A stretch of DNA of 64,000 bases, from positions 11,310-75,309 of the forward strand of contig CAXHEV010000002.1 in the NCBI GenBank assembly GCA_964015875.1, read 5' to 3'. Positions 2,225-54,633 of this stretch are shown piece after piece. The notes beneath the pieces were generated by a model. That model did no database searches, was not told the origin of the DNA, and saw only the letters and a list, made by a program, of their open reading frames with translations. Position 1 is the stretch's first letter. Each line of letters starts with the position of its first letter. The translations under genes were made by a program, and so were the position numbers. This DNA is from an uncultured Candidatus Poseidoniales archaeon. Its GTDB lineage: Archaea; Thermoplasmatota; Poseidoniia; Poseidoniales; Poseidoniaceae.

Positions 2225-3250
2225 TCAGCGAGTTGCTAGTGTGAGGGAAGACCACATCTCTTCAGGGACTTCCATAGCCAATCGGAGGCCACCCATTGCG
2301 CCAAGACGCACTGGATCGTCAACCACGTGAACATTGACGTCGCCCATATCTGACAGGCGTCGCTCAATCATTGCTCCGAGGCCCTTGATACCCGATCCGC
2401 CACCTGCAAGCACCATGTTTCGGCGGAACTCATCGTGATACTCTGGGTTCGAGCCTGCGATGAGTTGCTTCACATTGTCAACTATGGGATCAACGATTGC
2501 TTCGCAGGCTGCCTGGAGACAGTCTGTGATGTCGAGATTCATGGCTTTACCTTCGATTGAGAAGTCAACCATGATTGGGTTTTCAGGGGTGTGTGTACCA
2601 ACAAAGGAGTACTGCTCTTTCCATCGGCGAGCCATATCCTTGGTGATTTGGGCACCATTGAACTTGGATTGAATCTCTTTGATGAGTGCACGGTCAATGA
2701 AATCTCCAGCGTGACCGGTATGCATCTGGTCATCTGGACCGGGGATTGTACCATAGACACGGCAAAGGTCAGCAGTTCCTGCACCAATGTCGATGACAAG
2801 GGTGTGTTCAATCATGTCAAGAGCGTAAGCGACCGCAAACGGTTCGGAAATGATCATTGCAGCGTTGACCGAGCCTGCTGCAGCATCAAAAATAGCTGTC
2901 TTGTCAACGTAGGATGCTTCCGCAGGTGCACCGATAACGGCGACGACACGGTCGTATTCTTCAGGGTCTGACAAACCAATGAGGTGGGTGATGAAGTGTG
3001 CAATGAATTCACGGTCTTCTTGAGTATCCTTGATGACACCAAGTTCGAGTGGTCGGAACAGGTTCAATGCAAGTCGATTCTTGAGTGCTTCTTCACCAAA
3101 GAGAACATCACGCTTGAGGAAATTTCGTGCGATTGGGTCCTTAGGTGTACCAATCACAGTCAATTCTTCTTCTTCGTGACTGTCGGAGGAAACCATCACC
3201 GAGCGAAAGGTCCCCAAGTCAATTCCAATGTACAGTACTTCTTCTGCCAT
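2225..3250 (-). CDS. MreB/actin-like ATPase (actin/HSP70 fold)
   Basis: ATG at 3250 (track TTG start at 3334). MreB phosphate-1 motif IGIDLGTFRSVMV, phosphate-2 VIDIGAGTADLCRV and adenosine motif MVLAGGGSGIKGL are all present. Confidence 0.8.
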   Translation of the reverse strand: MAEEVLYIGIDLGTFRSVMVSSDSHEEEELTVIGTPKDPIARNFLKRDVLFGEEALKNRLALNLFRPLELGVIKDTQEDREFIAHFITHLIGLSDPEEYDRVVAVIGAPAEASYVDKTAIFDAAAGSVNAAMIISEPFAVAYALDMIEHTLVIDIGAGTADLCRVYGTIPGPDDQMHTGHAGDFIDRALIKEIQSKFNGAQITKDMARRWKEQYSFVGTHTPENPIMVDFSIEGKAMNLDITDCLQAACEAIVDPIVDNVKQLIAGSNPEYHDEFRRNMVLAGGGSGIKGLGAMIERRLSDMGDVNVHVVDDPVRLGAMGGLRLAMEVPEEMWSSLTLATR

Positions 3251-13223: not shown

Positions 13224-13853
13224 TCAGCGAGCAGATGCAGCAATCCGCTCCAACTCTTCCTTCTTGCCAACGGCAAAGGAGGTCACGTCGCCTGCAGCAG
13301 CCTTGGTCAGTTCATTGGTGATGCAACTGGTCAAGGTTCGCTTTGACTTGTGTGTGCCTTGTTGTGCGCCCTTAGCAAGGTTGCGGAGAGCGACGTCAAG
13401 ACGACGGGAGGGGGAGGAGTCAACAGCCTTTGGTTGGGAAACTGCACCGAACTTAATTCGGGTGATTTCTTCCATTGGAGCTGCGTTGCACAAAGCGTCA
13501 ACGAAGGTCTGCAACGGATTTTGGCCAGACTTTTCTGCGATGGTGTCGAGCGAAGTTTCGAAGGCTTTCATTGCGCCTTGCTTCTTCCCAGTGTATGGTC
13601 CTGTTCGCATCAATTTGTTGATGTATCGCTCGACAACCGACAACTTTGCCTTCCCGAACCATGCGTTAGCGTGGCGTCCACCGGTGTGCGGGACACCGAC
13701 GGTTGTGAGGTTGATGTAGGGTGCAAGTCCAGGATCCTTACAGGTGATGCCTGAAGCGTCCCACTTGCCAAAGACAAGGGTTCCAATTCCTGCAATTGGT
13801 CGAACTTCTTCGACTTCTTCCACAATTTCTTCGACGACTTCTGTTTCGGACAT
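13224..13853 (-). CDS. rps7: 30S ribosomal protein S7 (uS7) with a short acidic N-terminal extension
   Basis: ATG at 13853 (MSETEVVEEIVEEVEEV...). The track ORF extends into S12 in another frame and is rejected. The C-terminal part matches S7 (GKKQGAMKAFETSLDTIAEKSGQNPLQTFVDALCNAAPMEEI...RRLDVALRNL). Confidence 0.9.
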   Translation of the reverse strand: MSETEVVEEIVEEVEEVRPIAGIGTLVFGKWDASGITCKDPGLAPYINLTTVGVPHTGGRHANAWFGKAKLSVVERYINKLMRTGPYTGKKQGAMKAFETSLDTIAEKSGQNPLQTFVDALCNAAPMEEITRIKFGAVSQPKAVDSSPSRRLDVALRNLAKGAQQGTHKSKRTLTSCITNELTKAAAGDVTSFAVGKKEELERIAASAR

Positions 13854-13863
13854 GATAAACACC

Positions 13864-14292
13864 TCAGCGGACAGGCTTCTCCTTTCGACCACGGACCATT
13901 TCATCGAGTGAAACACCATTGACTTGGATGACCTTGTAGCGGACACCAGGAATGTCACCGTATGAACGACCCATGCGTCCACCGATACCTTCGACCATGA
14001 CTTCATCGTGTTCGTCAATGAAGTTGATTGCACCATCGCCCGGGGCGAAGGCAGTGAGCTTGTTTCCGTTCTTGATGAGCGAAATCTTGACCGCCTTGCG
14101 GATTCCGGAGTTTGGTTGCTTTGCTTCAATACCGACCTTTTCGATCACGATACCCTTGGCTTGTGTGGAACCAGCAAGCGGGTCGTGCTTGGCTCGGGAT
14201 TTTAGCATACGCTTCTTGTATCGACGGTCAGACCATCGAAACTTTTGGCGGTCTTTTGCCATTTTAGCACCAGCGAAGAGTCCTCTACCCAT
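13864..14292 (-). CDS. rps12: 30S ribosomal protein S12 (uS12)
   Basis: ATG at 14292: [39 protein letters not shown]...[17 protein letters not shown]. The track ORF start 14559 is a non-homologous upstream extension. Confidence 0.9.
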
Positions 14293-26883: not shown

Positions 26884-27105
26884 TTATGCCGAGGCGACAA
26901 TCTTGATGAGGATGCCTGTGATGCCTGCGACGATCAAGAGGAGGAGCATCATAGCTAGAGGTCCATATTGATTCTTGTCGGCAACTGCTGTACCAAAGAA
27001 ACCATCCCGGGAAATGGCCTCAGTGAATGAAGCTGCTTCTTCAAATTCTGGCAATGAGCGTCGAGGAATTCGCTCGCCATCTCGGACTACCAAATCGTCT
27101 CCCAT
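26884..27105 (-). CDS. Small tail-anchored membrane protein (hypothetical)
   Basis: 73 aa. ATG at 27105. The C-terminal TM helix is LAMMLLLLIVAGITGILIKIV. Confidence 0.3.
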   Translation of the reverse strand: MGDDLVVRDGERIPRRSLPEFEEAASFTEAISRDGFFGTAVADKNQYGPLAMMLLLLIVAGITGILIKIVASA

Positions 27106-29280: not shown

Positions 29281-29964
29281 TCACCTCAGTGGATTGAAGG
29301 GGTCGCCTCTGTCCTTTTGATCAAGAATTCGCTCAGTGACACTTGCCAATCCTAGGTTCCAGTTGACCTTGAAACAACGAACGCCTTGTGCCCATCCAGC
29401 GCCCATGTCACTGTCTCGATCGCCAATCATGGCATCGAGTGGGTGACTTGGTTCAATTTTATCATTCCACCAATTGACTTTAGCCCCTCCACCGATTTCC
29501 ACAACAAGTTGGGATTGCGTTGGCGATTCACCTCGAAATAACTGCTCACCTAATCGCAGCATTCCAGGCATTGGTTTCCTGCACTGGCACCGATCACGAT
29601 GCCGGTGGGGGCAAACAAGGACTGCATCAAAATGTGCATCCTTGTCAACATCCAGGAGCATTTGCCTCATTGCATCGTGAATTTGATGAATTCGATCAAC
29701 CCCCCATAACCCTCGCATAATTGGAGACTGATTGGTGACAATACAAATTTTGTAGCCACCACGTCGCAATTCACCAATAGATTCTGCCACATTCGGTAGC
29801 AGTACGAGTTCAGCAGGGGTGTTGATGTAGTTCGGTGAACCGATATTCAACACGCCATCTCTGTCAATGAAGGCGATGCCTCCATGATTAGGCGCACTTG
29901 CAGGAAGGTCCCGTGGTGTCCATTGAACGATGACCCCCCGCATACCCATGCGTGTGCAATTCAT
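29281..29964 (-). CDS. HAD-IIIA family phosphatase (GmhB / histidinol-phosphatase-like)
   Basis: Motif I FIDRDGVLN, followed by VCPHRHRDRCQCRKPMPGM and the C-terminal GDRDSD. ATG at 29964 (alternatives 29949 and 29943). Confidence 0.7.
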   Translation of the reverse strand: MNCTRMGMRGVIVQWTPRDLPASAPNHGGIAFIDRDGVLNIGSPNYINTPAELVLLPNVAESIGELRRGGYKICIVTNQSPIMRGLWGVDRIHQIHDAMRQMLLDVDKDAHFDAVLVCPHRHRDRCQCRKPMPGMLRLGEQLFRGESPTQSQLVVEIGGGAKVNWWNDKIEPSHPLDAMIGDRDSDMGAGWAQGVRCFKVNWNLGLASVTERILDQKDRGDPFNPLR

Positions 29965-29985: not shown

Positions 29986-30945
29986 ATGGGTTTGCTTGAA
30001 ATGTATCGGCTGTGTGGTTGGCCCATGCTGGTGCCAAACGAGGTGATTTCAGTCGTCGGGGCCGTTGGGCTCATCGCACTGGCTCTTTCATGGCACAGAA
30101 GGAACGCTTCTCCAGTTCGTTTATCACAACTAGGTTGGCTGTGCGTTGGTCTTTATTTCTTCAACGATGCATCAATTTATTTGGCTCATGATGATTTAAT
30201 TTTGACGCTGTTTTCGGTCATGACATTACCGATGGCTGTAGGTATGGCCGTCTGGGAAGCTCGTGCGGAAGACGAAAAAAGCAAAGCGTCACTCACTTGG
30301 GCTCGTGGTGCTGTTGCTTATGCAGGCGGTCCATATCTTCTCATTGCTCACGTTCCATGGCTCAGTGTTCTTGCCATTTGGTTTGTGGCAAGCCAAGCGG
30401 TATTTTTCCTGCGCTTTTCTGGGGGTGACAATATCGTCATGGGTGAAACATGGGTGAATACGGCAGAAGGACAGGTCGCATGGGCTGACTTTGAGGGTAA
30501 CAGATGGTTCATGGGATCATCTGCCGAAGAGTATGTGTTCCAAACAGAATTGCTGCTCGCTGACGGTACGCCAATTGGGATCAACTTTGTCCTGGCCTGT
30601 ACGGCTTTACAATCAATGGTCATATTCATCGGCGCTATCGCTGTCCTCGATATTGATTGGCGACGTCGCTGTCGTGTTTTGTTTCTGACCATTCCACTCA
30701 TCCATGTTCTGAATCTTTTTCGCAATGCAGGCCTGATATGGCTGCATACCACATACGTCGAATGGACGCTTCTTGGCATGTCAGTTTTTGAGTTCGGCCA
30801 CAGCTACGTCGCCCGATTTGTGTCCCTCTTTGCCATGTTCATCATTGCCTTGATCATGTTCGATCTCTTACCAGAATTACACCGGCATATTGTCCGATTG
30901 TTGAAGCCCTTGGGCTTGCTTCAGCCAAAAAACCGTACCAATTAG
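29986..30945 (+). CDS. Exosortase/archaeosortase-family polytopic membrane protein (putative)
   Basis: About seven TM helices. The candidate catalytic Cys205 in VLACTAL sits at a helix start. Arg246 lies in an N-x-x-R context (LNLFRNAG), exactly 41 residues later; this matches the Cys-to-Arg spacing I recall for archaeosortase A (from memory, unverified). A further Arg277 follows. There is a central soluble loop GDNIVMGETWVNTAEGQVAWADFEGNRWF. The gene is convergent with the giant surface protein and overlaps its 3' end by 4 nt. Confidence 0.5.
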   Translation: MGLLEMYRLCGWPMLVPNEVISVVGAVGLIALALSWHRRNASPVRLSQLGWLCVGLYFFNDASIYLAHDDLILTLFSVMTLPMAVGMAVWEARAEDEKSKASLTWARGAVAYAGGPYLLIAHVPWLSVLAIWFVASQAVFFLRFSGGDNIVMGETWVNTAEGQVAWADFEGNRWFMGSSAEEYVFQTELLLADGTPIGINFVLACTALQSMVIFIGAIAVLDIDWRRRCRVLFLTIPLIHVLNLFRNAGLIWLHTTYVEWTLLGMSVFEFGHSYVARFVSLFAMFIIALIMFDLLPELHRHIVRLLKPLGLLQPKNRTN

Positions 30946-33900
30946 CGTTGATGCCAGGGCTCTGTGGGGGAATTTCGAGTCCATGAAACCCCGCTTCCAG
31001 CAGGATATTCGATTGTTTCCGCCCCTGTAGCATCGAGCATTCCCATCAATTGTTGCGGCGGGGCAGAAACGGTTTGAGAAGGCGTAGAATCAAGCAGGTC
31101 AGCAAAGCCGTCCATCGATGTCATATCAACACCAGTTGGTGTTTCTTGTGGTGCAAACGCCTGGTTGTTATCAATCTCTGATACTTCAGGTACGTAGGAT
31201 TCGTTGGATACAGGTGAGGGCACTTCCATGGGAGATTCTTCATTCAGTCCGAGCATTTGAGATGCGATGTCCTGTTGTTTGATTTCTTCCCATTCGTTGG
31301 ATGTTTTTCCATTTTGACCTCGGCTTGCACCGACGAACGCTAAAATCAACAATGCAAACACGATTGCACCAACCAAACCTAGTGAGCCGTAGATGAGGTC
31401 ATTGGAAACACTAGGAGCAAGATCTGAATTGTCTCCAACCCCATCGCCATCTGTGTCTTCGGATTCCTTAGGGTCTTCAGGAAATGCATCTTCGTCATCT
31501 GGTACACCATCTCCATCACCATCGAACGCATCGAATGTTGTTTCACAGATGATGCTTCCAATTTCGAGTTCTTCACTGTTCAAGAATCCGTCTTTATCTG
31601 TATCGAATGCTGATGTGTCGAATTTATTTTTCAGGTCAAATGTTGCAAATTCTTTGACAGAAACTCCCTCGCCAAATGGAGATATTTGAGAAGCAATAAT
31701 CAATAATTCACTCTCACATGAACACAATTCTTGGAGCGCTTCTCTGAATTCTATATCACCATCACCATTCATATCAATTGTAGCAAAGTCACTGGCATCA
31801 GTTTCGTCGCTCGAGATAAATTCGCGCTCGTCAACAACGCCATCACCATTGCGATCCGCTTCCTCAAAGAGTGTTCTTGCTTCGTCTTCGCAGAACGTCT
31901 CAACCCCATTGTCTTCATCCGGATCAACTGGTTCTATCGGTGGGAGAGGTGAATCTTCCCAGAATGCGATGATGCTCACATCACTGATTTCTTCTTCGAC
32001 TATGAGAGTAATATCAAACCGTCCATTGGCGGGTAATTCGATGTAGAGTGTGTGCTCCGTACCTTCGCCTTCTGAGACGATTTCGACTTCTTCTGCTGTG
32101 AATTGATCAACCGGTCGGCCCTGTCTACCCTCCGTCTTTTCACCACCTGCTTTTTCATCTTCAACATCTTCTTCTTCGAAGAAACCACCGAAATTAAATT
32201 CAAGAACCGTCCCTGAGGCTTCCAGTTCAAGGCTTCCAGTTCCTCCATACGTGTTGATTTCAAGATAACTTCCGGGGCTTTCTAGTTCGACGAAGAACAA
32301 TAGTGATTCACCATCTGGTGCTTCTAGTCCAGTAATTTCCTCTCCATTGAACAATTCGATTGGCGTGCCATCATAGGACCAAATGTATCTGTCTTCAAAT
32401 GAAGCTGTAATCAAAATGTTAGCAAAGACATCCTCTGTGGTAAGAAGGATGTACCATGTGCCAGGTGTCGGGTCATTGAATCCGATTTTATCACCTGCGC
32501 CAGGCGTTGAAGATTGGAGGTCATACTCCCCAGCCGTCGGGAATTGCTCAAGACGCATGTACATGGTGGCCTCACCATAACCTTCCGAGAGGTCCACCTC
32601 TAAACGCTCAGTTCCTGTTGGCACCTCGATCTTGAAGTACTGATTTAGACCATCATATCCCGTCAACGGCCCATAGGCAACACCAGGGGTAAGTTCAACG
32701 GCATCTTCTGGAGCTGTGTTATCAGGCGCAAAGGCCATTGTAGCGACAATTGTGAAATCCATGGCTCGTTGGTAGGTGTAAGCTGTGACATAATACCGGC
32801 CTGGTTGAACGTCGTAGAGCGTAGCATCCTGTTCATTGCCTTGTCCACTGTCATAGACAATTTTTCCTTGGTTTGGGTTATTGGTTTCTCCGGAATCATC
32901 AAACTCGGGCTCATCATCGAAGAACCAGAAATCGAACGGATCTGGAACTGTGCCCCACGACAAACCGATGTCGATGTTTCCTGTTCCTCCATAGGTGCTG
33001 ACGGTTAGGCTCGAGAGATTTTCTTCCACATCTACATAATAGTAGAGGACACGATCTTCAAAATCTGCTTGACGTCCAACATCAATGGTTTGACCTGTGA
33101 CTGGAATTCCGTTGTTGAGTTCAGTCATATCCTCCTCAGATGGAGGCGGATCAGCAACGTCCCACGAGACGACCATAGTGTAATCCTCAATATCAGTCTC
33201 GGGGACCAGTAATACCCACCATGCACCGGAGTCTGGCCAGGTGAATTCCTCCCATGCATAGCCCCACATTGCTTCAATGGAACCGTCATTGTCCCAAGAA
33301 CTCGGGATTCTGTTATGACCAAAGTAGATGTTAATTGTGATTTCTTCATTCTTGAATTGGCTAGGGAAGAGATTGAAAAACAATTCTTGGGTCATTTCAT
33401 CAAGGTCCGCAAAGAAAAGAAGGTTGTCCCCTGCGTTGGCCGAAATCCCCTCGATTTCTTCATCGTTTTTAATTTGAATGACTTGGGCAACAATGGTACC
33501 ATCTGGCATCACCCAATCGGCACCAAAAATGGTTCCGGTGGAGTTGGAGGCATCATCGCTTGTGAGCATGCCTTCACCCTCGTGGAAGTTCCAATGTGAG
33601 ACCAATATTGGTTCATCACTGAGATTTGACATTCCCGTTCCAATTGAGATGTTGTCTAACATACCCATGAAATAATTGCAATCACATCCAGCGCCCATGC
33701 TGGCAATGAACAGTTCATCACAATCATCTCCTGATGTAAAGCAGTCATTCGAACCGAAGTCTCCGGCCGGGATCAGCGCTTGTTCAGCACTGATGGCTCC
33801 GGCTGCGACCCCATTCACTCGGAATTCTCCACCGACTCCTTCGATCACTTCGACTTCGACGTGCGACCAAGTTTCAATAGGGACAGTGACATTGGCAGTA

Positions 33901-34634
33901 GGGTGTTGTGAGAGACTGTACTCTGAGGAATAAGCCAGTGTGCCAGCGTTGAGGTACATGCCCCAACCATAATCACCTTTCATGGTGATGAATTGAATGC
34001 CTTCGTCATGGAATGGGTATATCCAAGCGGAGATAGAGATGCTACCGGTAATGTTCAACGCTTCGTTGTGTTCGATCTCAATACGGTCGCCTTCGTCAGC
34101 GAACCTCAAGGAATAGTCAGCACCAGGTCCAACTTCTACCACACCATAGACTGGAAAGTATTGTGGATCATTTTCCAAATCGTTCCAAGTCCCTGGCATA
34201 ATGTTTCCCATGTTGGTGCTGGCGATGTGAACATAACCTTCGTCATCGCTTGCAGAGGGTTGATCTGCACCCCAGTTTCGATAGTAGAAAGGAGCGCCAT
34301 TGTGCCAGCGGTATGCACCGTCATTGTCGTCATCGTACAGTCCGGTCCATAGGTGGCGAGAAGTATTGTCGAACGAGGCGAAGGTATCAAACAACCACTG
34401 GTTTTCAGTCTCATCATCAATCGTGACTAGGAATCCGTCTAAACCACGTGCGACTTCAGCAGCAACGGTCCAAGAGCTCTCACTCAGGAGGTAATATGTG
34501 TGGTTATTTGCAGGGTTAACTGCGGTGTCGAGGATGACGATATCTTCGACGTCTTGGGCTTGGGCTATGGGCGTTATTGGCGCCATAAGGCTCAACAGAA
34601 ATAGCATGACAAGCATCGTTGCCTTTGTGCGCAT
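30942..34634 (-). CDS. Giant secreted, membrane-anchored surface/adhesin-like protein: signal peptide, Cys-less C-type-lectin-like domain, LamG/ConA-like domain, three PPC (pre-peptidase C-terminal) beta domains, dockerin/EF-hand-like Ca-binding loops, one TM helix, and a roughly 150-aa cytoplasmic tail
   Basis: Signal peptide MRTKATMLVMLFLLSLMAPITPIAQAQ. CTLD hallmarks LWTGLYDDDNDGAYRWHNGAPFYYRNWGADQPS...GTWNDLEND, without the usual cysteines. LamG: ISISAWIYPFHDEGIQFITMKGDYGWGMYL...ETWSHVEVEV...FRVNGV. PPC-like: YYYVDVEENLSSLTVSTYGGTGNIDIGLS...GRYYVTAYTY, QYFKIEVPTGTERLEVDLSEGYGEATMYMRL, LLFFVELESPGSYLEINTYGGTGSLELE. Ca loops: DRNGDGVVDEREF, DMNGDGDIEFRE, DTDKDGFLNSEELE, DGDGDGVPDDED, DTDGDGVGDNSD. 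TM helix LIYGSLGLVGAIVFALLILAFVGAS followed by RGQNGK. Confidence 0.85.
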   Translation of the reverse strand: MRTKATMLVMLFLLSLMAPITPIAQAQDVEDIVILDTAVNPANNHTYYLLSESSWTVAAEVARGLDGFLVTIDDETENQWLFDTFASFDNTSRHLWTGLYDDDNDGAYRWHNGAPFYYRNWGADQPSASDDEGYVHIASTNMGNIMPGTWNDLENDPQYFPVYGVVEVGPGADYSLRFADEGDRIEIEHNEALNITGSISISAWIYPFHDEGIQFITMKGDYGWGMYLNAGTLAYSSEYSLSQHPTANVTVPIETWSHVEVEVIEGVGGEFRVNGVAAGAISAEQALIPAGDFGSNDCFTSGDDCDELFIASMGAGCDCNYFMGMLDNISIGTGMSNLSDEPILVSHWNFHEGEGMLTSDDASNSTGTIFGADWVMPDGTIVAQVIQIKNDEEIEGISANAGDNLLFFADLDEMTQELFFNLFPSQFKNEEITINIYFGHNRIPSSWDNDGSIEAMWGYAWEEFTWPDSGAWWVLLVPETDIEDYTMVVSWDVADPPPSEEDMTELNNGIPVTGQTIDVGRQADFEDRVLYYYVDVEENLSSLTVSTYGGTGNIDIGLSWGTVPDPFDFWFFDDEPEFDDSGETNNPNQGKIVYDSGQGNEQDATLYDVQPGRYYVTAYTYQRAMDFTIVATMAFAPDNTAPEDAVELTPGVAYGPLTGYDGLNQYFKIEVPTGTERLEVDLSEGYGEATMYMRLEQFPTAGEYDLQSSTPGAGDKIGFNDPTPGTWYILLTTEDVFANILITASFEDRYIWSYDGTPIELFNGEEITGLEAPDGESLLFFVELESPGSYLEINTYGGTGSLELEASGTVLEFNFGGFFEEEDVEDEKAGGEKTEGRQGRPVDQFTAEEVEIVSEGEGTEHTLYIELPANGRFDITLIVEEEISDVSIIAFWEDSPLPPIEPVDPDEDNGVETFCEDEARTLFEEADRNGDGVVDEREFISSDETDASDFATIDMNGDGDIEFREALQELCSCESELLIIASQISPFGEGVSVKEFATFDLKNKFDTSAFDTDKDGFLNSEELEIGSIICETTFDAFDGDGDGVPDDEDAFPEDPKESEDTDGDGVGDNSDLAPSVSNDLIYGSLGLVGAIVFALLILAFVGASRGQNGKTSNEWEEIKQQDIASQMLGLNEESPMEVPSPVSNESYVPEVSEIDNNQAFAPQETPTGVDMTSMDGFADLLDSTPSQTVSAPPQQLMGMLDATGAETIEYPAGSGVSWTRNSPTEPWHQR

Positions 34635-34699: not shown

Positions 34700-37600
34700 T
34701 CATTTCAGGCGTTTTCCACCGATTCGCAATTCTGTTTGAAGTGGCATTTGATGTTCCCAAGCGAATTCCTTGACAATACGCCAAGCCTTCTCCGAGCCTT
34801 CGTAATCCTTGACATCGATGATTTTATTTCTGGTGTTTGCTTTGAATGCGGCGATTGGTTCAGCATTTTTGAACACTAGGTAGGCTGATCCAAATCCAAA
34901 CCTTTCCTTCATTATATCTGCGAAATATGGAGCGATTGGATCGCTTGGAGGTAGCACGAAATCCCGAATGGGGGGGATGTCTTTGGCTTCATCGAGCAGG
35001 TTTTTGCGACCCCAACAGACCTGATCTAACTCATCGATGAGGAATCCCTTCACGAGCGTTCCATCCTCTTCAAATGATGTCAGAACGGCTTTGATTTCCT
35101 CAGGTTTGAACGGCGTGCCGGCCAATCTCAGTAATTGTTTGAGTGTGATGACGGGGAAGTCTTGAACAAGCGCTCGAATATATTCCCTGCGCAACTCTAT
35201 TGGATCTACGCCGGCACGTAGTTTGACGGTCCTAAAACCACCACGGAAGTCTTGAACGATATGCCCTGATCGAATTAAGGGCTGAACTAATTTTCTAAAT
35301 TCCGATTGAGTCAATGCGTGGCGTTCCTTGAACAGGTTCGGATCCGTATTGCTGCTGAAGAATTCGACGATATCCCACAAATCCTCATCAAAAGGCTCAC
35401 CACGAATAGCTAACAAGTTCTGGAAATGCTCGTACGTTGCCCATACTTGATGGCCACGCAGGTTGATCCCTTGGTGGAGTCGGTTTGCACTTGCCATGCT
35501 CTTAAGATCGACTCGATACAATTCACAACGTCCACGAAGGGCAAAATCATCGCGTATTTCTGTGACCTCACGAAGCGCCATGACCTCATTTTCCATTCTT
35601 GTTTTTTGGTGGAGGTTGTGACGATGGAACAGTGCTCGCTCAGCGATTTCTCGTGGTTGCGGGTCAACGACACCGCCCCGAATCATGCGTTCTCCAGTAA
35701 TCTTGAAACCAATTCGTTCCAGGGCTTCACGTGTTTCTTTACCAAGGCTAGAAACAGGTTCACTGTTGAAGTTTGACAGCACTGCAACATCGACAAGTTG
35801 GTCTGCATGGTTGTCCAGCAGGAGTTTGAATGCATCACAGAATTCATCGATGTAAGCAGTTGGAACGTGTAAATCTTTGATGACGAGGTAGTCATTGATC
35901 TTGAACATTAAGACCTTGCCAATTGGATCAATGCCTTTGAACACAGGCAGGTACCAACCTCGATCAAGGACGCTACGAACTTCCCAAATGAAACGGGACA
36001 CATACGGATCGGATTGTGTAAGGATGCGCATTGTACGGTCTTCACGGCGAGGTTGTTGCAGCAATTCGACTTCCTCTGGCATACAATAAAATGCTTCAGG
36101 ATCAGGCACTAAGGCCATGACTTTTGCAATTCGCCCCGACTTTTCCAAGTTCATCAAAGCTACGGTGAGATCCTCGAATGAGCGAGTGACGTAGAATCTC
36201 AATGTGTTGCCTTTGACCGGTCCCATTCTACGGATCACATCCACCAGAGCGCTCTCGAAATCAAGTGGTTCATAGACCTCGTGAACCCTGTGGAAGAGCG
36301 ACAAGCGTCGTCGTCTGCCAGGGACATCTTCGAATTGTTTAACCACAAGCATTTGCCGCTCCAAGTTCGACATTGCGTACTTGAGATCACGTTGGAGGGA
36401 GCGATGTTCGTCGCCCTTAGGGAAATCGGCCATGATTTCTTGACGAGTGACATTTTCACCAACTGGAATTCTTTTGAGCAGTTCTTCTTCCATCGGACCA
36501 ACCCAAGGTTCGGGCTTGAGTCCGAGGAGCATTGGGATCGTTTCTTTTGTTGTGTAGCCCATTCTGTTGTGCAACAACCGGCCCATGATGACGTCTGAAT
36601 CGAGTTGCAAATCTTGCCAATCTTTGAACCTAAAGTCGGTCACCCTGTAGAGAAGCTCCTGTTGTTTTTGAAACAAGACGTGGGAGTCGAAAGCAGAGAA
36701 ACCATCGCCATATTGCTGGAATGTTTTGTCCAGAACCAAATTTTGAACCCAGCGATATTCAACGACGTCTTCTGAACTATCAATCAAGCGATGCTCGTCA
36801 ATCTTGAGGATGTATTCCGCTTCGTCCGTTTGTTTATAGAATCCTACAGATAGGACATTTCGCGTTTCTAATTCATGGAGAATCTTGTCAACCATCGCTC
36901 GTGGGAACGGTAAACGCTCTTCTAACTGGTCCCCAGTATGAGGACCTTCACTGCCTAACATTTCGATGATCTTGACTCGCATTGCTTCGTGTGGATCACC
37001 CAGTGATTGTTCGGTCCAAGTGGTAGGAGTGCGCTCAGCAAATGCGGTTGCTGTTTTGTAAGAGAGACCGCGCGTGTGCAATTCTCTCAAATCTGTGACG
37101 TCTTTCCCACCGTTGACAGATAAGCAACCGAGGGTCCCGTGAATTTCTGCCATGAACGGCGAGAACCACTTTCCGTCGAGTTGTTCTGAACCAGTACCAT
37201 CAAGTTTGGTAATTCTTCCTTCGGCACATAACTCAGTGACCCAACCTCGAATGGTATCGATTTCGATGCCTGCGAGTTTCTCTTTGTACAGAGGATTGTT
37301 GAATTCTTGATCCAGTCCTCCACCGTGCGACATCAGCGTCATCAATCCCTTTGCATTGGTTGGAATTGGTGCTTTGTCAAGGTAGAATTTGTCCAATTGT
37401 TCACCAGTCAGTTCGGTGGCTAGACTGCGAGTTCCAAGGAGTCGCTGTAAGATGGCTGGATCGATATCTTTGACGAGGTAGGCCCTAGTTTTCATCGCCA
37501 TCAAATCTTCAAATGCAGACATGAACAACGACATTCCAAGCCGGGATGGTACAGTGACTTTATTATGAACAATTCGTGCATCACCTTGCACACATGATTG

Positions 37601-39982
37601 TAAGAATACCTCCAAACTCTTCATGTCGATATCGCCGAACAAGATTTCGTTTTTGGCTTCACGCATCAAAAGGCTGTCATCGGTTGTTCTGTGTTTATTG
37701 AGCAAGGCTTCTGCCTTCTGTTGAAATTGCTGAGGGCTGATTTCTTCGGCACCAATTCGCTTCGGAATAATCATAGAACGACCAGCAACTTCTCTGAATC
37801 GTTTTGCAAAAATTTGGGTGTTGACCACATATCGTTCTATGACTTCGTTGTGGTTATTATTTCTAAATTCCTTATACATCTGTCCAGGGTCAACTTCTTC
37901 TGAAGTTCGTATCAGCAGTCCATTCTCATCGAACGACATTTCGATTACTGCGATGTTGTTGGATTCTGCAATGCCCGCCATGAAGTATCCAAGAGCAGTG
38001 TTGAATCCTCGGCCTCGACATGTGGTAATCATGTAGGTCGGATGGCCACCAGTCAGCACTTGTTCGACAAGAATTCTGTTCGGATCTGGAACTTGGAATG
38101 AATCAAAACTGTGTTCTTCAAGGTGCCTTGCTATGGCGTTTGCAACGTCATTGGACAAACCATAGGCATCACGAAGGAGAATACGTGGGTCCTGTTCTCT
38201 TCGTAGTGAGACAATACAGTGGCCAATGAGGTCCAACAATGCACTGGATAGTTCCCTTGAGCGAGAACGGGCTTCTCCGGACCATGATGGAACAGTTGGA
38301 CGATGGCCAGTGACTGATGCGACATTGACCCTCGTACCTTGGATGTTGGTGACTCTGTATGTTGAACCACCCAAAAGAATCACGTCGCCGCCACGTAGAT
38401 TGGACACGAAGGACCCTGAAAGTTGTCCAAGAATGGAGCCTTCTGCATTGAATACGAGGTATGAATTATCAGGAGCAATGGTTCCAATATTGGTATAATA
38501 AATCATACGAGAATACCCACGTTTTCCGTAGATATTTTCTTCCCAATCTACCCATACACGTCGTTCTTCTTCTAGCATGTCGAGTACTTCTATGAAATCG
38601 TCATACTCGAAATTTCGATAGGACCAAGCATTCACGATAATTTCGTAAGCTTCATCGATGTCAATTTGATTGATAATGACGAGCCCAATCATGAATTGTG
38701 CCACCACATCCAAGCAATTTTCAGGGAAGTCTAGCCTGTCCATGTCGCCGGTTTGAATCGCTGCTTGCAAGGCTGCTAACTCCAACAAATCATCAACGCT
38801 TGAGGGGAGGAAACGGGCACGAGGTATTCCACCAACATGGTGGCCAGCACGGCCTATTCGCTGAAGTGCTGTCGCAATGTCGCCAGGGCTGCCGATTTGC
38901 AGTACGAGATCAACCGAACCAATATCGATACCCATTTCTAACGAGGACGAGGTGACGACGGCTCGAAGATGGCCATGTTTGAGTTTCTTTTCGACGTCTA
39001 AACGTATTTTTTTGTCCATTGAACCGTGATGTCCAGCAACCAAATCACCGAGGTAGGGGCGCAATTTAAGGACAATATTTTCAGTCATTTTTCTTGTGTT
39101 CGCAAACACAAGAGTTGTGTTGTGTGCGGCTATGAAATCTGCAACTGCTTCGATGTTTTTGTCAAATATTTTCATCACTGACAAATCACTGAATTTTGGA
39201 TCTGTGATTAAAATATCTAGGTCCAATTCCCGAGATCCCGAAACCTTTGCAATACATACCTTGGTCGCTGCAGTTCTGCTTTCTTGATCATCGCTAGCCA
39301 CTAAAAATTCTGCAACTGTTTCCAATGGTTCCATCGTAGCAGAAATACCAATTCGTTGCACTGGGCGGGTTAGAAGTGTGTCAAGGTACGACAAAGTTAG
39401 GGCAAGATGGACACCACGCTTGGTTGGTACGAGTGAGTGCAACTCGTCAATGATCATGTATTCGACTTCGCTGACGATCGGTTGGAATCTTGGTGATGTG
39501 ATGGCAATAGCAAGGCTTTCGGGTGTGGTAATGAGGATGTGCGGAGGATTGCGAAGCATCTTTTGGCGTTCGCTTTGAGGTGTATCGCCGGTTCGCAATC
39601 CAACCTTAATCTCCTGGGCACGATCGGGGAGGTAGCGCTCAGATATTTCCTTGAGTGGACCTAGAAGGTTGCGCTGAATATCGTTGGCAAGTGCCTTGAT
39701 TGGTGAGATGTAGACACAATACACCCGCTTCTCGAGTTTTCCATCAAGGGCTCGACGAACCAGCTGGTCAATGATTGAAAGAAAGGCAGTCAACGTCTTA
39801 CCAGAACCTGTAGGGGAGCAAAGCAGCAGGTGCTCTTGCTCAATAATGGCTGGAATTGCTAATTTTTGAGGGCGAGTGAAATCTGGAAATTTATCTTTGA
39901 ACCAGTTTCGAACGGGTGGACATAACCGTTCCAACAAAGCCTCTGTTTCGAGAGGTTGGTCTAGATAGTGTATATCAGCCAT
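34700..39982 (-). CDS. lhr: Full-length Lhr-type DExH-box helicase (Lhr-core plus a long C-terminal region, 1760 aa)
   Basis: Motif I CSPTGSGKT and motif II MIIDELHSLVPTKRGVHLALTLSYL, a close match to Lhr DEIH...KRGAHLAL. Motif VI region QRIGRAGH. Lhr-core spans roughly the first 900 aa and is followed by about 850 more residues. ATG at 39982. Confidence 0.85.
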   Translation of the reverse strand: MADIHYLDQPLETEALLERLCPPVRNWFKDKFPDFTRPQKLAIPAIIEQEHLLLCSPTGSGKTLTAFLSIIDQLVRRALDGKLEKRVYCVYISPIKALANDIQRNLLGPLKEISERYLPDRAQEIKVGLRTGDTPQSERQKMLRNPPHILITTPESLAIAITSPRFQPIVSEVEYMIIDELHSLVPTKRGVHLALTLSYLDTLLTRPVQRIGISATMEPLETVAEFLVASDDQESRTAATKVCIAKVSGSRELDLDILITDPKFSDLSVMKIFDKNIEAVADFIAAHNTTLVFANTRKMTENIVLKLRPYLGDLVAGHHGSMDKKIRLDVEKKLKHGHLRAVVTSSSLEMGIDIGSVDLVLQIGSPGDIATALQRIGRAGHHVGGIPRARFLPSSVDDLLELAALQAAIQTGDMDRLDFPENCLDVVAQFMIGLVIINQIDIDEAYEIIVNAWSYRNFEYDDFIEVLDMLEEERRVWVDWEENIYGKRGYSRMIYYTNIGTIAPDNSYLVFNAEGSILGQLSGSFVSNLRGGDVILLGGSTYRVTNIQGTRVNVASVTGHRPTVPSWSGEARSRSRELSSALLDLIGHCIVSLRREQDPRILLRDAYGLSNDVANAIARHLEEHSFDSFQVPDPNRILVEQVLTGGHPTYMITTCRGRGFNTALGYFMAGIAESNNIAVIEMSFDENGLLIRTSEEVDPGQMYKEFRNNNHNEVIERYVVNTQIFAKRFREVAGRSMIIPKRIGAEEISPQQFQQKAEALLNKHRTTDDSLLMREAKNEILFGDIDMKSLEVFLQSCVQGDARIVHNKVTVPSRLGMSLFMSAFEDLMAMKTRAYLVKDIDPAILQRLLGTRSLATELTGEQLDKFYLDKAPIPTNAKGLMTLMSHGGGLDQEFNNPLYKEKLAGIEIDTIRGWVTELCAEGRITKLDGTGSEQLDGKWFSPFMAEIHGTLGCLSVNGGKDVTDLRELHTRGLSYKTATAFAERTPTTWTEQSLGDPHEAMRVKIIEMLGSEGPHTGDQLEERLPFPRAMVDKILHELETRNVLSVGFYKQTDEAEYILKIDEHRLIDSSEDVVEYRWVQNLVLDKTFQQYGDGFSAFDSHVLFQKQQELLYRVTDFRFKDWQDLQLDSDVIMGRLLHNRMGYTTKETIPMLLGLKPEPWVGPMEEELLKRIPVGENVTRQEIMADFPKGDEHRSLQRDLKYAMSNLERQMLVVKQFEDVPGRRRRLSLFHRVHEVYEPLDFESALVDVIRRMGPVKGNTLRFYVTRSFEDLTVALMNLEKSGRIAKVMALVPDPEAFYCMPEEVELLQQPRREDRTMRILTQSDPYVSRFIWEVRSVLDRGWYLPVFKGIDPIGKVLMFKINDYLVIKDLHVPTAYIDEFCDAFKLLLDNHADQLVDVAVLSNFNSEPVSSLGKETREALERIGFKITGERMIRGGVVDPQPREIAERALFHRHNLHQKTRMENEVMALREVTEIRDDFALRGRCELYRVDLKSMASANRLHQGINLRGHQVWATYEHFQNLLAIRGEPFDEDLWDIVEFFSSNTDPNLFKERHALTQSEFRKLVQPLIRSGHIVQDFRGGFRTVKLRAGVDPIELRREYIRALVQDFPVITLKQLLRLAGTPFKPEEIKAVLTSFEEDGTLVKGFLIDELDQVCWGRKNLLDEAKDIPPIRDFVLPPSDPIAPYFADIMKERFGFGSAYLVFKNAEPIAAFKANTRNKIIDVKDYEGSEKAWRIVKEFAWEHQMPLQTELRIGGKRLK

Positions 39983-46822: not shown

Positions 46823-48415
46823 TCACCCGAGGTTTTCAGCCACCATTGGCACCTTGAACGTACCACCATTCACATTCACGTCACCAACGGTTGTCCACAG
46901 TGGCGGCGAACGGTCGATGCCTGTCGAATACATACCTGGCCGATAATATGCATTGAGGAGGTCACCGCTTGGATCTGGTTCTTCGATGTATGCGATGTAA
47001 GCTGTGGGTGTGTGAAGAAGCCATTTGTTGTTGACCACATCGACTTGACCCTGAACATAGCATGTTGCAAGTTCAATATCTCGTTCCTCGCAATACTCTT
47101 GGCTGAGGGGGAGCTGAATGTATCCCCAAGCGTGTGCTTCCCAGACCTGATAGTTTCCGTCTGTCAAAGCACCAAAGGCATACCAACCGGGAAGGTTCTT
47201 GACCCGCAACAAGGATAGGAAGGCGTTGGTTTGTTCATCACAATCACCCGTTCCGGCTGCAAGGCATTCCGGACCACTGCGCGCAATAATCGGAGCTTGC
47301 TTGTCATAGGTTGCGTGCTTGTGAAGATAATCGAAAGCTGCCCGTGCGTAGCCATATGCGTTCTCTGTCTCCCCTTCAGGAAGACTTTGGCTGATTTGAT
47401 TTGCTACTTCAATCACTTCTTCGTGTTGGGCATTGATGGCCCAGCCACCAAGCGATCGACTGTCGATGACAGGGCTCATGCCCCGGTCGTACCACTTTGC
47501 GGTTCGAAATTGTTGTGCGTCTCCAAATGCATCACGAAGAGAGACGTCATCAAAGGTCCCGCTGGTGTCCATACTGATGCCGTTATCAATCCCATTGATT
47601 CGTGAATCCACACGTCCAGAATCCCACCACGAGTAGGCAGTACTTGTGAGTGTGATTGTGAACATAAACGACGATGTTTGACCTGGATCCAGATTCAACT
47701 TCACCTTAACACACGATGCAACACCGCAGAAGTCATTCCCCTCGCCGCTACCCGGCCACCATAATTCATGACCGTTATTTGTGGTGATTTTATCCTCGAC
47801 CGAGCGCGTTGGTAATCCATTCAATGGAATGTTAAACACCTCATTCGTGTCGATTGTCATGGTGAGTGCCGTGATTTTTTGAACGCTCTGTGTTGGCATA
47901 GCAAGCGAATCATCAGTATATTCAAAATGGGTGTTTGACCCATTCAGTGATCTCACATCAGGTGGAATGACTATATTTTCCATAAGATACCCCTCACCAC
48001 CATTATTGACGACTTCAATAGTTTTCGCGACTGAATAGGTTGTTTCGATTGGGTAGAGGTGGAACGGGGCTGCCTGTAAGAGAACAGATTCCTTGACCGC
48101 AGCAAATTGCGCTATTGATGCTTCTTGAACAGTCGGAGATGTGAACACGAAAGCAATGAAAATCACCATGACAATCATTCGTGATTTGTTTCGTGTTCGT
48201 TTCATGATGTTTTTCGATCGCCCTGAATGGGTTTGTATGACCCCGGGTGCAGTAGGCCTGCTCGTCATTTTGTAGGTCGTTTCTTTAGAGCCGCTGTTAA
48301 ATTGCTGTTCCAAGGCAAATTCCTTGGAGTCAAGATTTGCCAACACGCGACCGCATGAATAGCAAATTGTGTCGCCCGGTAAGGTGACACTTCGGCAATA
48401 AGGGCAGGAACCCAT
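46823..48415 (-). CDS. Transglutaminase-like cysteine-protease-fold membrane protein with an N-terminal cytoplasmic zinc ribbon
   Basis: CPYC...CYSCG at residues 4-22. TM helix MIVMVIFIAFVFT. Extracellular TG-like core GTGDCDEQTNAFLSLLRVKNLPGWYAFG (Cys) ... EAHAWGYIQL (His). ATG at 48415. Confidence 0.7.
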   Translation of the reverse strand: MGSCPYCRSVTLPGDTICYSCGRVLANLDSKEFALEQQFNSGSKETTYKMTSRPTAPGVIQTHSGRSKNIMKRTRNKSRMIVMVIFIAFVFTSPTVQEASIAQFAAVKESVLLQAAPFHLYPIETTYSVAKTIEVVNNGGEGYLMENIVIPPDVRSLNGSNTHFEYTDDSLAMPTQSVQKITALTMTIDTNEVFNIPLNGLPTRSVEDKITTNNGHELWWPGSGEGNDFCGVASCVKVKLNLDPGQTSSFMFTITLTSTAYSWWDSGRVDSRINGIDNGISMDTSGTFDDVSLRDAFGDAQQFRTAKWYDRGMSPVIDSRSLGGWAINAQHEEVIEVANQISQSLPEGETENAYGYARAAFDYLHKHATYDKQAPIIARSGPECLAAGTGDCDEQTNAFLSLLRVKNLPGWYAFGALTDGNYQVWEAHAWGYIQLPLSQEYCEERDIELATCYVQGQVDVVNNKWLLHTPTAYIAYIEEPDPSGDLLNAYYRPGMYSTGIDRSPPLWTTVGDVNVNGGTFKVPMVAENLG

Positions 48416-53971: not shown

Positions 53972-54559
53972 TCACGAACGTCGCCAGGCGATGATCATTG
54001 CGGCAAGGAGGGCGACAATGGCAACGATATCAGGAATGCCAAATGGTCCATCCGGGTATGGAAGAGACCAACCCATACCGGTGCCGAGTTCGTGGAGACT
54101 TGCAAGATTCATTTTTGTGTAGCCATCAGAAGGGCACAGATCGCTTTCTAAGCACCCACTACCAAACACCGAGTGGAGCAAACCAAACAGATTTGCGACA
54201 ACCAAAATCAAGAGGGTACCCAGAGCGAAAAATGGCATCTTCGATCCGTTAGCGGTAGCCGGGAGAGGTGCAATTGGCGGCAAATCGCCACCGAGTGTTG
54301 GCAATTCTGCAGGCGAGGCAGGTGCAATGTCACCAATGACTTCAATCAGCATGTCAGTCGGTGGAGCAACTTCGGTGACACCTGCATCCGACAGGGATGG
54401 AGCATCGACCATGTCTCGAGCTTTTTTGGGGCGAGCCGGAGTAATCTTGATTCCGTATAATCGGTCAGCAAGTGATACCAATGCGGGGTCATCAGCAATA
54501 TCTTCAGGGGACAAATCACCATCCAACAATTGTTGTAACTTATCACGAGATGAGTTCAT
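53972..54559 (-). CDS. Hypothetical membrane protein with a Pro-rich extracytoplasmic stretch
   Basis: ATG at 54559 (track TTG at 54580). Two TM helices (FFALGTLLILVVANLFGLL, IVAIVALLAAMIIAW). Confidence 0.4.
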   Translation of the reverse strand: MNSSRDKLQQLLDGDLSPEDIADDPALVSLADRLYGIKITPARPKKARDMVDAPSLSDAGVTEVAPPTDMLIEVIGDIAPASPAELPTLGGDLPPIAPLPATANGSKMPFFALGTLLILVVANLFGLLHSVFGSGCLESDLCPSDGYTKMNLASLHELGTGMGWSLPYPDGPFGIPDIVAIVALLAAMIIAWRRS

Positions 54560-54633
54560 TCGATACCCCCTGCGTACCAAGCGTAGAGGACTTCATTGAA
54601 GAATCCTCCTTCTCAAGGAAATTATGTCAATCC

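Follow-up and report, generated by a model that had tools for sequence, protein, structure and literature searches.

A gene for a membrane protein resembling exosortases and archaeosortases lies tail to tail with the gene for a 1230-amino-acid surface protein in the genome of an uncultured Candidatus Poseidoniales archaeon. We analysed the surrounding DNA over 64,000 nucleotides (contig CAXHEV010000002.1, positions 11,310 to 75,309 of the forward strand), and this whole stretch is called the window in the following. The locus raises two questions, namely which enzyme the open reading frame at 29986..30945 (+) encodes and whether the neighbouring surface protein is its substrate, as an earlier reading of the letters without database searches (the sequence-only reading) had hinted. 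Judged by its sequence, the open reading frame codes for the orthologue of archaeosortase A (ArtA) in an archaeon of the Poseidoniaceae (Marine Group II). Marine Group II archaea are among the most abundant archaea of the surface ocean and are still uncultured, and their cells are believed to make their living from particulate and high-molecular-weight organic matter, to which they attach and which they degrade.

Assignment to archaeosortase A

Two curated models carry the assignment. TIGR04125, the archaeosortase A model of NCBIfam, matches residues 24-306 over model positions 5-260 of 271 with 96.7 bits (cutoff 75) and is by far the best-scoring model. TIGR04178, which describes the exosortase/archaeosortase signature region, scores 50 bits against a cutoff of 23 and covers model positions 4-96 of 97; the matching residues 202-296 (30589..30873, +) hold the catalytic residues. 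The sequence-only reading had proposed an enzyme of this kind and suggested a hidden Markov model (HMM) search against the TIGR exosortase and archaeosortase models, a search that bears out the proposal, with a passing score for the ArtA model. The other subfamily models of the NCBIfam scan remained below their cutoffs, heimdallarchaeosortase as runner-up with 30.4 bits (cutoff 130), XrtX with 28.6 (cutoff 170) and ArtH with 15.6 (cutoff 200).

Homologue searches point to the same family. Among 5.8 billion proteins, 407 homologues were retrieved by word-seeded searching; those with a name, from Candidatus Poseidoniales, are called "archaeosortase A" at NCBI and "archaeosortase A (PGF-CTERM-specific)" at JGI. 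With HMMER, 1.84 billion cluster representatives were searched exhaustively, which brought up 244 relatives, and the distant full-length representatives that were tested (19-53% identity) match TIGR04125 without exception (49 of 49; best E-value 6e-74). A species-representative genome collection contains 426 relatives, the top match being 95% identical. The best 80 of these 426 are essentially all labelled Poseidoniales/Poseidoniaceae (Marine Group IIa) or unclassified euryarchaeotal metagenome-assembled genomes, with bacterial bin labels on two, and the labels agree with the euryarchaeal host expected of ArtA. The 2012 Marine Group II chromosome CM001443.1 carries a relative of 87% identity. 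Membership in ArtA holds on every sequence-based criterion that could be tested.

The feature as such is already known, orthologues being publicly annotated as archaeosortase A. In the literature searched, archaeosortase or PGF-CTERM is not described for Poseidoniales or Thermoplasmatota. Nothing in the present data is surprising.

Catalytic residues

The sequence-only reading had pointed to a cysteine in the context VLACTAL and to an arginine in LNLFRNAG exactly 41 residues downstream. Both are present. The cysteine is C205 (codon 30598..30600, +), the predicted catalytic nucleophile and equivalent of Cys173 in Haloferax volcanii ArtA, and the arginine is R246, the equivalent of Arg214, which closes the motif N-L-F-R (codons N243-R246, 30712..30723, +). 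The 41-residue spacing, which the sequence-only reading had given for ArtA, is correct for Cys173-Arg214 of H. volcanii (PMC9263693) and likewise for Natronorubrum. In H. volcanii ArtA, the residues Cys173, Arg214 and Arg253 are critical according to published mutagenesis (PMC9263693).

C205, R246 and R277 do not vary among the close homologues (116 of 116), unlike the remaining cysteines C10, C53 and C229. Since these homologues share about 100 invariant columns, conservation was retested on 87 distant representatives. The asparagine N243 and R246 are found in all 87, C205 in 86 and the histidine H272 in 83, so that, down to 19% identity, the Cys/Asn/Arg/His signature varies hardly or not at all. 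The codons of H272-R277 lie at 30799..30816 (+), and the two ends of this short segment differ in their conservation: H272 is near-invariant family-wide, R277 invariant within Poseidoniales only. R277 had been noted as a third arginine. It is indeed present and invariant in the close homologues, but its column holds lysine in 72 and arginine in 12 of the 87 distant relatives. Aligned in this way, R277 is a Poseidoniales-specific variant of a mostly-lysine position and not a family-wide arginine; N243 and H272 are better conserved.

As a haloarchaeal reference we used the artA gene annotated by the Prokaryotic Genome Annotation Pipeline (PGAP) on a Natronorubrum bangense replicon (WP_049890003.1), whose product scores 327.8 bits on TIGR04125. 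In the alignment of the two proteins, a check of the kind that had been suggested for characterised ArtA, Natronorubrum C195 and R236, 41 residues apart, coincide with C205 and R246, and N233 and H275 with N243 and H272. The cysteine and the first arginine can hence be placed securely on a known ArtA by alignment.

Translation start and membrane topology

As listed, the artA reading frame runs from ATG to stop at 29986..30945 (+) and comprises 319 amino acids. The true start is probably M14, with its ATG at nucleotide 30025, which gives a gene at 30025-30945 and a protein of 306 amino acids. We prefer this start because in-frame stops interrupt the upstream extension in the closest relative (L010, 95% identity) and in two further relatives (L023, L038), and because the column of residue 10 is a gap in 99 of the 116 homologues, which means that the extension lacks a counterpart. 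The first 13 listed codons (29986-30024) are probably untranslated, as most homologues begin at the equivalent of M14. With this start the intergenic gap between artA and the divergent HAD gene would measure 60 nucleotides instead of 21.

Hydropathy and the positive-inside rule give seven hydrophobic segments, in agreement with the seven transmembrane helices of the sequence-only reading, whereas an AlphaFold2 model built with 49 homologues shows eight long helices at moderate confidence (predicted local distance difference test score, pLDDT, 72.4; predicted template modelling score, pTM, 0.66). We therefore give the predicted helix count as seven to eight, and the protein as a probable polytopic membrane protein. 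Basic clusters at residues 37-45, 226-230 and 300-317 are compatible with the cytoplasmic side, the latter two flanking the catalytic helices. From model and charge distribution we infer a sidedness in which the catalytic residues would lie near extracytoplasmic helix ends. Just upstream of the cysteine-bearing helix, residues 147-200 (30424..30585, +) form a predicted extracytoplasmic loop or small beta-sheet domain. This segment is hydrophilic, with many residues invariant across Poseidoniales, and the AlphaFold2 model places strands at 151-159, 162-165, 185-190 and 196-200.

Proposed mechanism and candidate substrates

We consider it likely, at a probability of roughly 0.8, that the protein is the ArtA of Poseidoniaceae and acts as a polytopic membrane cysteine endopeptidase/transpeptidase in the manner of the H. 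volcanii enzyme, on dispersed PGF-CTERM proteins; we infer its activity and the nature of its substrates from this analogy. Secreted proteins that bear a tripartite signal at the C-terminus (PGF motif, hydrophobic helix, basic residues), which is the signal recognised by H. volcanii ArtA (PMC6098224), would be held temporarily in the membrane. C205, at the outer end of its helix, would attack near the motif and form a thioester acyl-enzyme, with release of helix and tail. R246 may provide, together with N243 and H272, the conserved catalytic environment. A membrane lipid, for which archaetidylethanolamine made by PssA and PssD has been proposed, would then resolve the intermediate through its amine, and the mature protein would end up lipid-anchored at the cell surface. 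Thioester and archaetidylethanolamine are both parts of the model from H. volcanii work (PMC7157517). The substrates to be expected are PGF-CTERM proteins encoded elsewhere in the genome; known ArtA genomes have 1 to 52 dispersed substrates each, and in H. volcanii the permutation of PGF to PFG abolishes processing (PMC6098224).

A six-frame scan of the window yielded a single tail of tripartite shape, ...DGPFGIPDIVAIVALLAAMIIAWRRS, on a 202-amino-acid open reading frame at 53972-54580 (-). We rejected it as an ArtA substrate despite the fitting shape. On the PGF-CTERM model TIGR04126 it reaches 9.7 bits (cutoff 24.5), through its helix and basic part only, and its motif is ordered PFG, not PGF. 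The proline has no conserved counterpart among 118 orthologues, for which the consensus reads G-x-[YF]-G-I-P-D-I-V-A, and the protein has two helices and lacks a signal peptide. To judge from these orthologues, the likeness of the tail is a non-conserved coincidence.

The same open reading frame represents a Poseidoniaceae-specific family of about 191 amino acids with 439 homologues, all of them named hypothetical. Its members have a strongly conserved, cytoplasmic-looking N-terminal domain (LL.GD.SPE.IA.DP.LVSLADR.YGIK), followed by two helices, an outer loop with a cysteine, and the conserved [YF]GIPDIVA before the last helix.

The neighbouring surface protein

The gene for the 1230-amino-acid surface protein (30942..34634, -) is convergent with artA; its product is not shown here to be an ArtA substrate. 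The stop codons of the two genes interlock in the tetranucleotide TTAG, with the plus-strand TAG at 30943-30945 and the minus-strand TAA at 30942-30944. The reading frames accordingly overlap by 4 nucleotides, exactly as the sequence-only reading had reported for this secreted protein. The protein begins with a segment that resembles a signal peptide and has a single hydrophobic helix towards its C-terminus, the Pfam domains Lectin_C (C-type lectin), PPC and EF-hand, and Asp-rich repeats of the thrombospondin-type-3-like kind.

Hydropathy and alignments of 6 and 59 orthologues place the single C-terminal transmembrane helix at residues ~1080-1103 (31326..31397, -), with a predicted cytoplasmic tail of 127 amino acids behind it (residues 1104-1230; 30945..31325, -). 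The earlier description of a helix followed by a long tail, rather than a canonical tag, is correct in its order of elements, but the tail is about 127 residues long and not 150. Directly before the helix, the segment APSV(A/S)NDLIYG lacks PGF across the 59 orthologues. The conservation of this block is 0.93, compared to 0.90-0.97 in the best ectodomain blocks, and the block is the last thrombospondin-type-3-like (Ca-binding-type) repeat of the protein. The tail itself carries the motif EWE..K..QMLGM right past the helix and LMGM.D..G.E.IEYP.GSG..W.R at its terminus. The terminal motif has a conservation of 0.63 against 0.22 in the linker, which is variable and rich in Ser, Pro and Glu. The conserved terminal motifs suggest that the tail is retained and functional. 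It is possible that the tail motifs are a docking site for a cytoplasmic partner.

The protein does not conform to a terminal sorting signal, as its helix precedes the 127-amino-acid tail and not a short basic end, and its helix region gave no match to TIGR04126 even at E <= 10. We also considered the C-terminal module as a recurrent tag and rejected it. A 160-amino-acid query retrieved only 11 short orthologous fragments in a word-seeded search of limited sensitivity. As a sorting tag should recur, the restriction of the module to this protein argues against such a role. Most likely the protein is a type I membrane protein of the ordinary kind, from which neither the helix nor the conserved cytoplasmic tail is removed.

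Gene neighbourhood across lineages

Adjacency of artA and the giant gene was observed in essentially all Poseidoniaceae genomes with enough flanking sequence (57 full-length-class and 13 truncated cases out of 80, plus three recovered by hand). The two genes belong to a collinear 20-kb block of these genomes that comprises, in this order, exosome, proteasome, ADSL, TiaS, HAD, artA, the giant gene and Lhr. In four more distant ArtA lineages (36-43% identity; L090-L093) the giant gene is absent, and the gene whose 3' end artA overlaps is instead that of the Lhr helicase. We interpret the giant gene, on account of these lineages, as a lineage-specific insertion between artA and lhr. Because Lhr is the overlapping convergent partner there, we likewise interpret the 3' overlap as a reflection of genome compaction and not of coupling. 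Synteny had been considered as evidence of a functional link, and was rejected as such once the direct ArtA-Lhr overlap appeared in the lineages of 36-43% identity.

In the window, the gene at 34700-39982 (-) encodes a very large Lhr-type helicase of 1760 amino acids, whose 3' end corresponds to the ancestral convergent overlapping partner of artA in L090-L093. In one Poseidoniaceae subclade (L079, 6246-10025, +) the giant lectin/PPC gene is inverted and lies co-directionally 63 bp downstream of artA. The tail of the protein encoded there is without the terminal LMGM...EYP..SG..W.R motif and ends in ...MSDVLDNLFD.

The divergent neighbour on the other side of artA, a gene for a GmhB-like HAD-IIIA phosphatase (29281..29964, -), is retained at greater evolutionary depth. 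The protein scores 118.9 bits on NF006506, below the cutoff of 178, and 83 bits on TIGR01662, above the cutoff of 44.6. The GmhB-like gene is kept beside artA, and divergent from it, in L090 and L091, with a GmhA-like SIS isomerase gene in between (L090, 165-1397; L091, 8686-9918); in L092 and L093 the GmhA-like gene adjoins artA and is followed by an open reading frame that was not scanned. GmhB-like and GmhA-like proteins both remain under the equivalog cutoffs. It may be speculated that these neighbours link heptose or glycan synthesis to the maturation of surface proteins.

Three other genes of the window were recorded on the way. A 73-amino-acid open reading frame at 26884-27105 (-) ends in a hydrophobic helix after a conserved NQYGP, a tail shared by several Poseidoniaceae loci (L018, L027, L043, L085), and its product resembles a conserved tail-anchored protein. 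The gene at 2225-3250 (-), which corresponds to 13237-14262 of a matching contig (L098), has precomputed Pfam matches to MreB_Mbl and Salactin and faint ones to Actin and Volactin; its product is apparently an archaeal cytoskeletal protein of the actin family. The gene at 46823-48415 (-), which adjoins TrkA- and TrkH-like genes, encodes a protein of 530 amino acids whose N-terminal segment is Cys-rich and zinc-ribbon-like and which also has one helix and a transglutaminase core (PF01841, 32.8 bits).

Alternative explanations

Several observations weigh against an ArtA that acts in the haloarchaeal manner on PGF-CTERM proteins. The score on TIGR04125, 96.7 bits here and 327.8 bits for the haloarchaeal protein, marks the Poseidoniales enzyme as a divergent ArtA branch, and its specificity could differ. 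The column of R277 holds glutamine (Q280) in Natronorubrum ArtA, and either this column or the loop arginine seen in Natronorubrum (R268) may correspond to R253 of H. volcanii. The ArtA protein does not reach E <= 1 on the Pfam model Exosortase_EpsH. A Foldseek search of the AlphaFold2 model against the PDB gave zero matches at E <= 0.001 and phmmer against the PDB nothing relevant, the family having no experimental structure there for comparison. Ten genes of the window were scanned against Pfam, and none of them was recognised as a homologue of PssA or PssD. Finally, the 64-kb window and about 17 kb of extra flank, taken from the matching contig ERZ27265851:k141_243898 (294 kb), yielded no PGF-CTERM protein, and the cognate substrates are for this reason assumed, not seen. 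The roughly 81 kb so sampled make up about 4% of a genome of ~2 Mb and are uninformative unless substrates are very numerous; as ArtA substrates are normally dispersed, none would be expected near artA. Six-frame scans for PGF-type tails over 1.5 Mb of relatives' loci and the extra flanks likewise found none, in DNA that is essentially one housekeeping region resampled.

An alternative is a divergent ArtA whose specificity has shifted to a C-terminal signal other than PGF, peculiar to the lineage and carried by dispersed substrates. The difference in score and the lack of PGF-type tails in the ~81 kb would agree with such a shift, as would the literature searched, in which neither PGF-CTERM nor archaeosortase is described for the lineage. 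However, with about 4% of the genome sampled no tail is expected even if there are ten or more substrates, TIGR04125 is far ahead of the next model, heimdallarchaeosortase (30.4 bits against a cutoff of 130), and all sequence neighbours are ArtA. We consider a shift of this kind unlikely. An altogether unrelated polytopic membrane protein (CPBP protease, rhomboid or transporter), in which the Cys/Arg pattern would be coincidental, could be suspected from the Pfam-A result, as the exact sequence gives nothing significant and a sub-threshold DUF2637 as its sole match. This suspicion is contradicted by two curated exosortase/archaeosortase models above their cutoffs, by the Cys/Asn/Arg/His signature that persists down to 19% identity, and by precomputed PF09721 matches on many orthologues. 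No CPBP, rhomboid or transporter model matched in NCBIfam or Pfam at E <= 1. What the sequence-only reading had named as grounds for abandoning the assignment (no HMM match, an unconserved Cys or Arg, a grouping with CPBP, rhomboid or transporters) was not encountered, and the explanation by an unrelated protein is effectively refuted.

The hinted link to the neighbouring adhesin would make the two genes a dedicated pair, in which a non-canonical internal signal of the giant lectin/PPC protein (APSVANDLIYG, helix, Arg/Lys) is processed by ArtA. The ectodomain would be transferred to a lipid anchor, and the cytoplasmic tail would stay behind as a free fragment, similar to the internal signal of HVO_0405. 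ArtA is indeed able to process signals away from the C-terminus (PMC9263693; PMC6098224), and in practically every Poseidoniaceae genome with enough flank artA and the giant gene lie side by side, an adjacency that survives the inversion of the giant gene in L079. But the whole 20-kb block is collinear, which makes the adjacency unspecific, a single-gene inversion trivially retains its neighbours, and in the four lineages of 36-43% identity the giant gene is missing and Lhr takes its place as the convergent overlapping neighbour. The high conservation of the pre-helix segment (0.93) also appears to favour a pair; it is that of the last repeat, however, and does not exceed the best ectodomain blocks. 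PGF is absent and TIGR04126 unmatched at E <= 10, and in H. volcanii permutation of PGF kills processing (PMC6098224). The conserved terminal motifs suggest a functional tail that is retained, and the word-seeded search did not find the C-terminal module on any other protein. A dedicated pair is therefore very unlikely. We regard as equally improbable the combined proposal that ArtA has shifted to a non-PGF signal and that the giant neighbour is cleaved at the junction of APSVANDLIYG and helix, its ectodomain being lipid-anchored and its 127-amino-acid tail released. A functional link between ArtA and the 1230-amino-acid protein is unsupported by the evidence presented here, and the hint of the sequence-only reading is not sustained in this respect. 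An ArtA acting on dispersed PGF-CTERM proteins remains our preferred explanation.

Significance

The present assignment amounts to a routine annotation, which indicates that the ArtA machinery, by which surface proteins are lipid-anchored, is probably present in Marine Group II archaea. The substrates of the Poseidoniales enzyme would reveal which surface proteins, possibly including an S-layer protein, are lipid-anchored in these archaea. A non-PGF signal, or processing of the giant neighbour, would widen the known specificity of archaeosortases if true, but the evidence points away from both.

Comparison with known systems

The closest comparison is with H. volcanii ArtA (HVO_0915) and Natronorubrum bangense ArtA, which belong to the same TIGR04125 family as the window protein. 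They share with it the Cys...(41)...Arg arrangement, the asparagine three residues before the arginine and the histidine at the start of the last helix. In size the proteins are likewise similar, with about 306 amino acids here and 303 in H. volcanii ArtA, both being polytopic membrane proteins. The differences lie in sequence divergence, with about 31% identity across the catalytic region and 327.8 bits for the haloarchaeal against 96.7 bits for the window protein, and in the R277 column, where the Poseidoniales enzyme has arginine and Natronorubrum glutamine. PGF-CTERM substrates are known for haloarchaeal ArtA, whereas those of Poseidoniales are putative. The host is also of a different kind, as it lives as a planktonic heterotroph in the sea and has a compact genome, unlike the haloarchaeal hosts of ArtA.

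HVO_0405, an ArtA substrate of H. volcanii with an internal tripartite signal, resembles the 1230-amino-acid neighbour in that both have a helix followed by a long C-terminal extension and no terminal tag. However, HVO_0405 retains a canonical PGF, and its extension stems from a strain-specific gene fusion (PMC6098224). The neighbour, by contrast, has no PGF and a tail conserved across about 60 species. HVO_0405 is thus a weak precedent for the giant neighbour, given its PGF and the strain-specific origin of its extension.

The wider family, including ArtB-ArtH, heimdallarchaeosortase, XrtA-XrtY and EpsH, shares with the window ArtA the signature region of about 97 residues (TIGR04178). These enzymes are also presumed, like ArtA, to cleave a tripartite sorting signal by means of a Cys. 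The window protein scores far under the cutoffs of all these subfamily models. Several archaeosortase and exosortase subfamilies are dedicated enzymes encoded beside a single substrate, whereas ArtA normally serves dispersed ones. Sortase A of Gram-positive bacteria is a functional analogue, being a cysteine transpeptidase that uses a C-terminal signal of motif, helix and basic residues, a thioester intermediate and a conserved arginine. It differs in its unrelated sequence and fold and in its single membrane anchor, compared to the polytopic ArtA, and it attaches its substrates to a peptidoglycan precursor, whereas ArtA attaches them to a membrane lipid.

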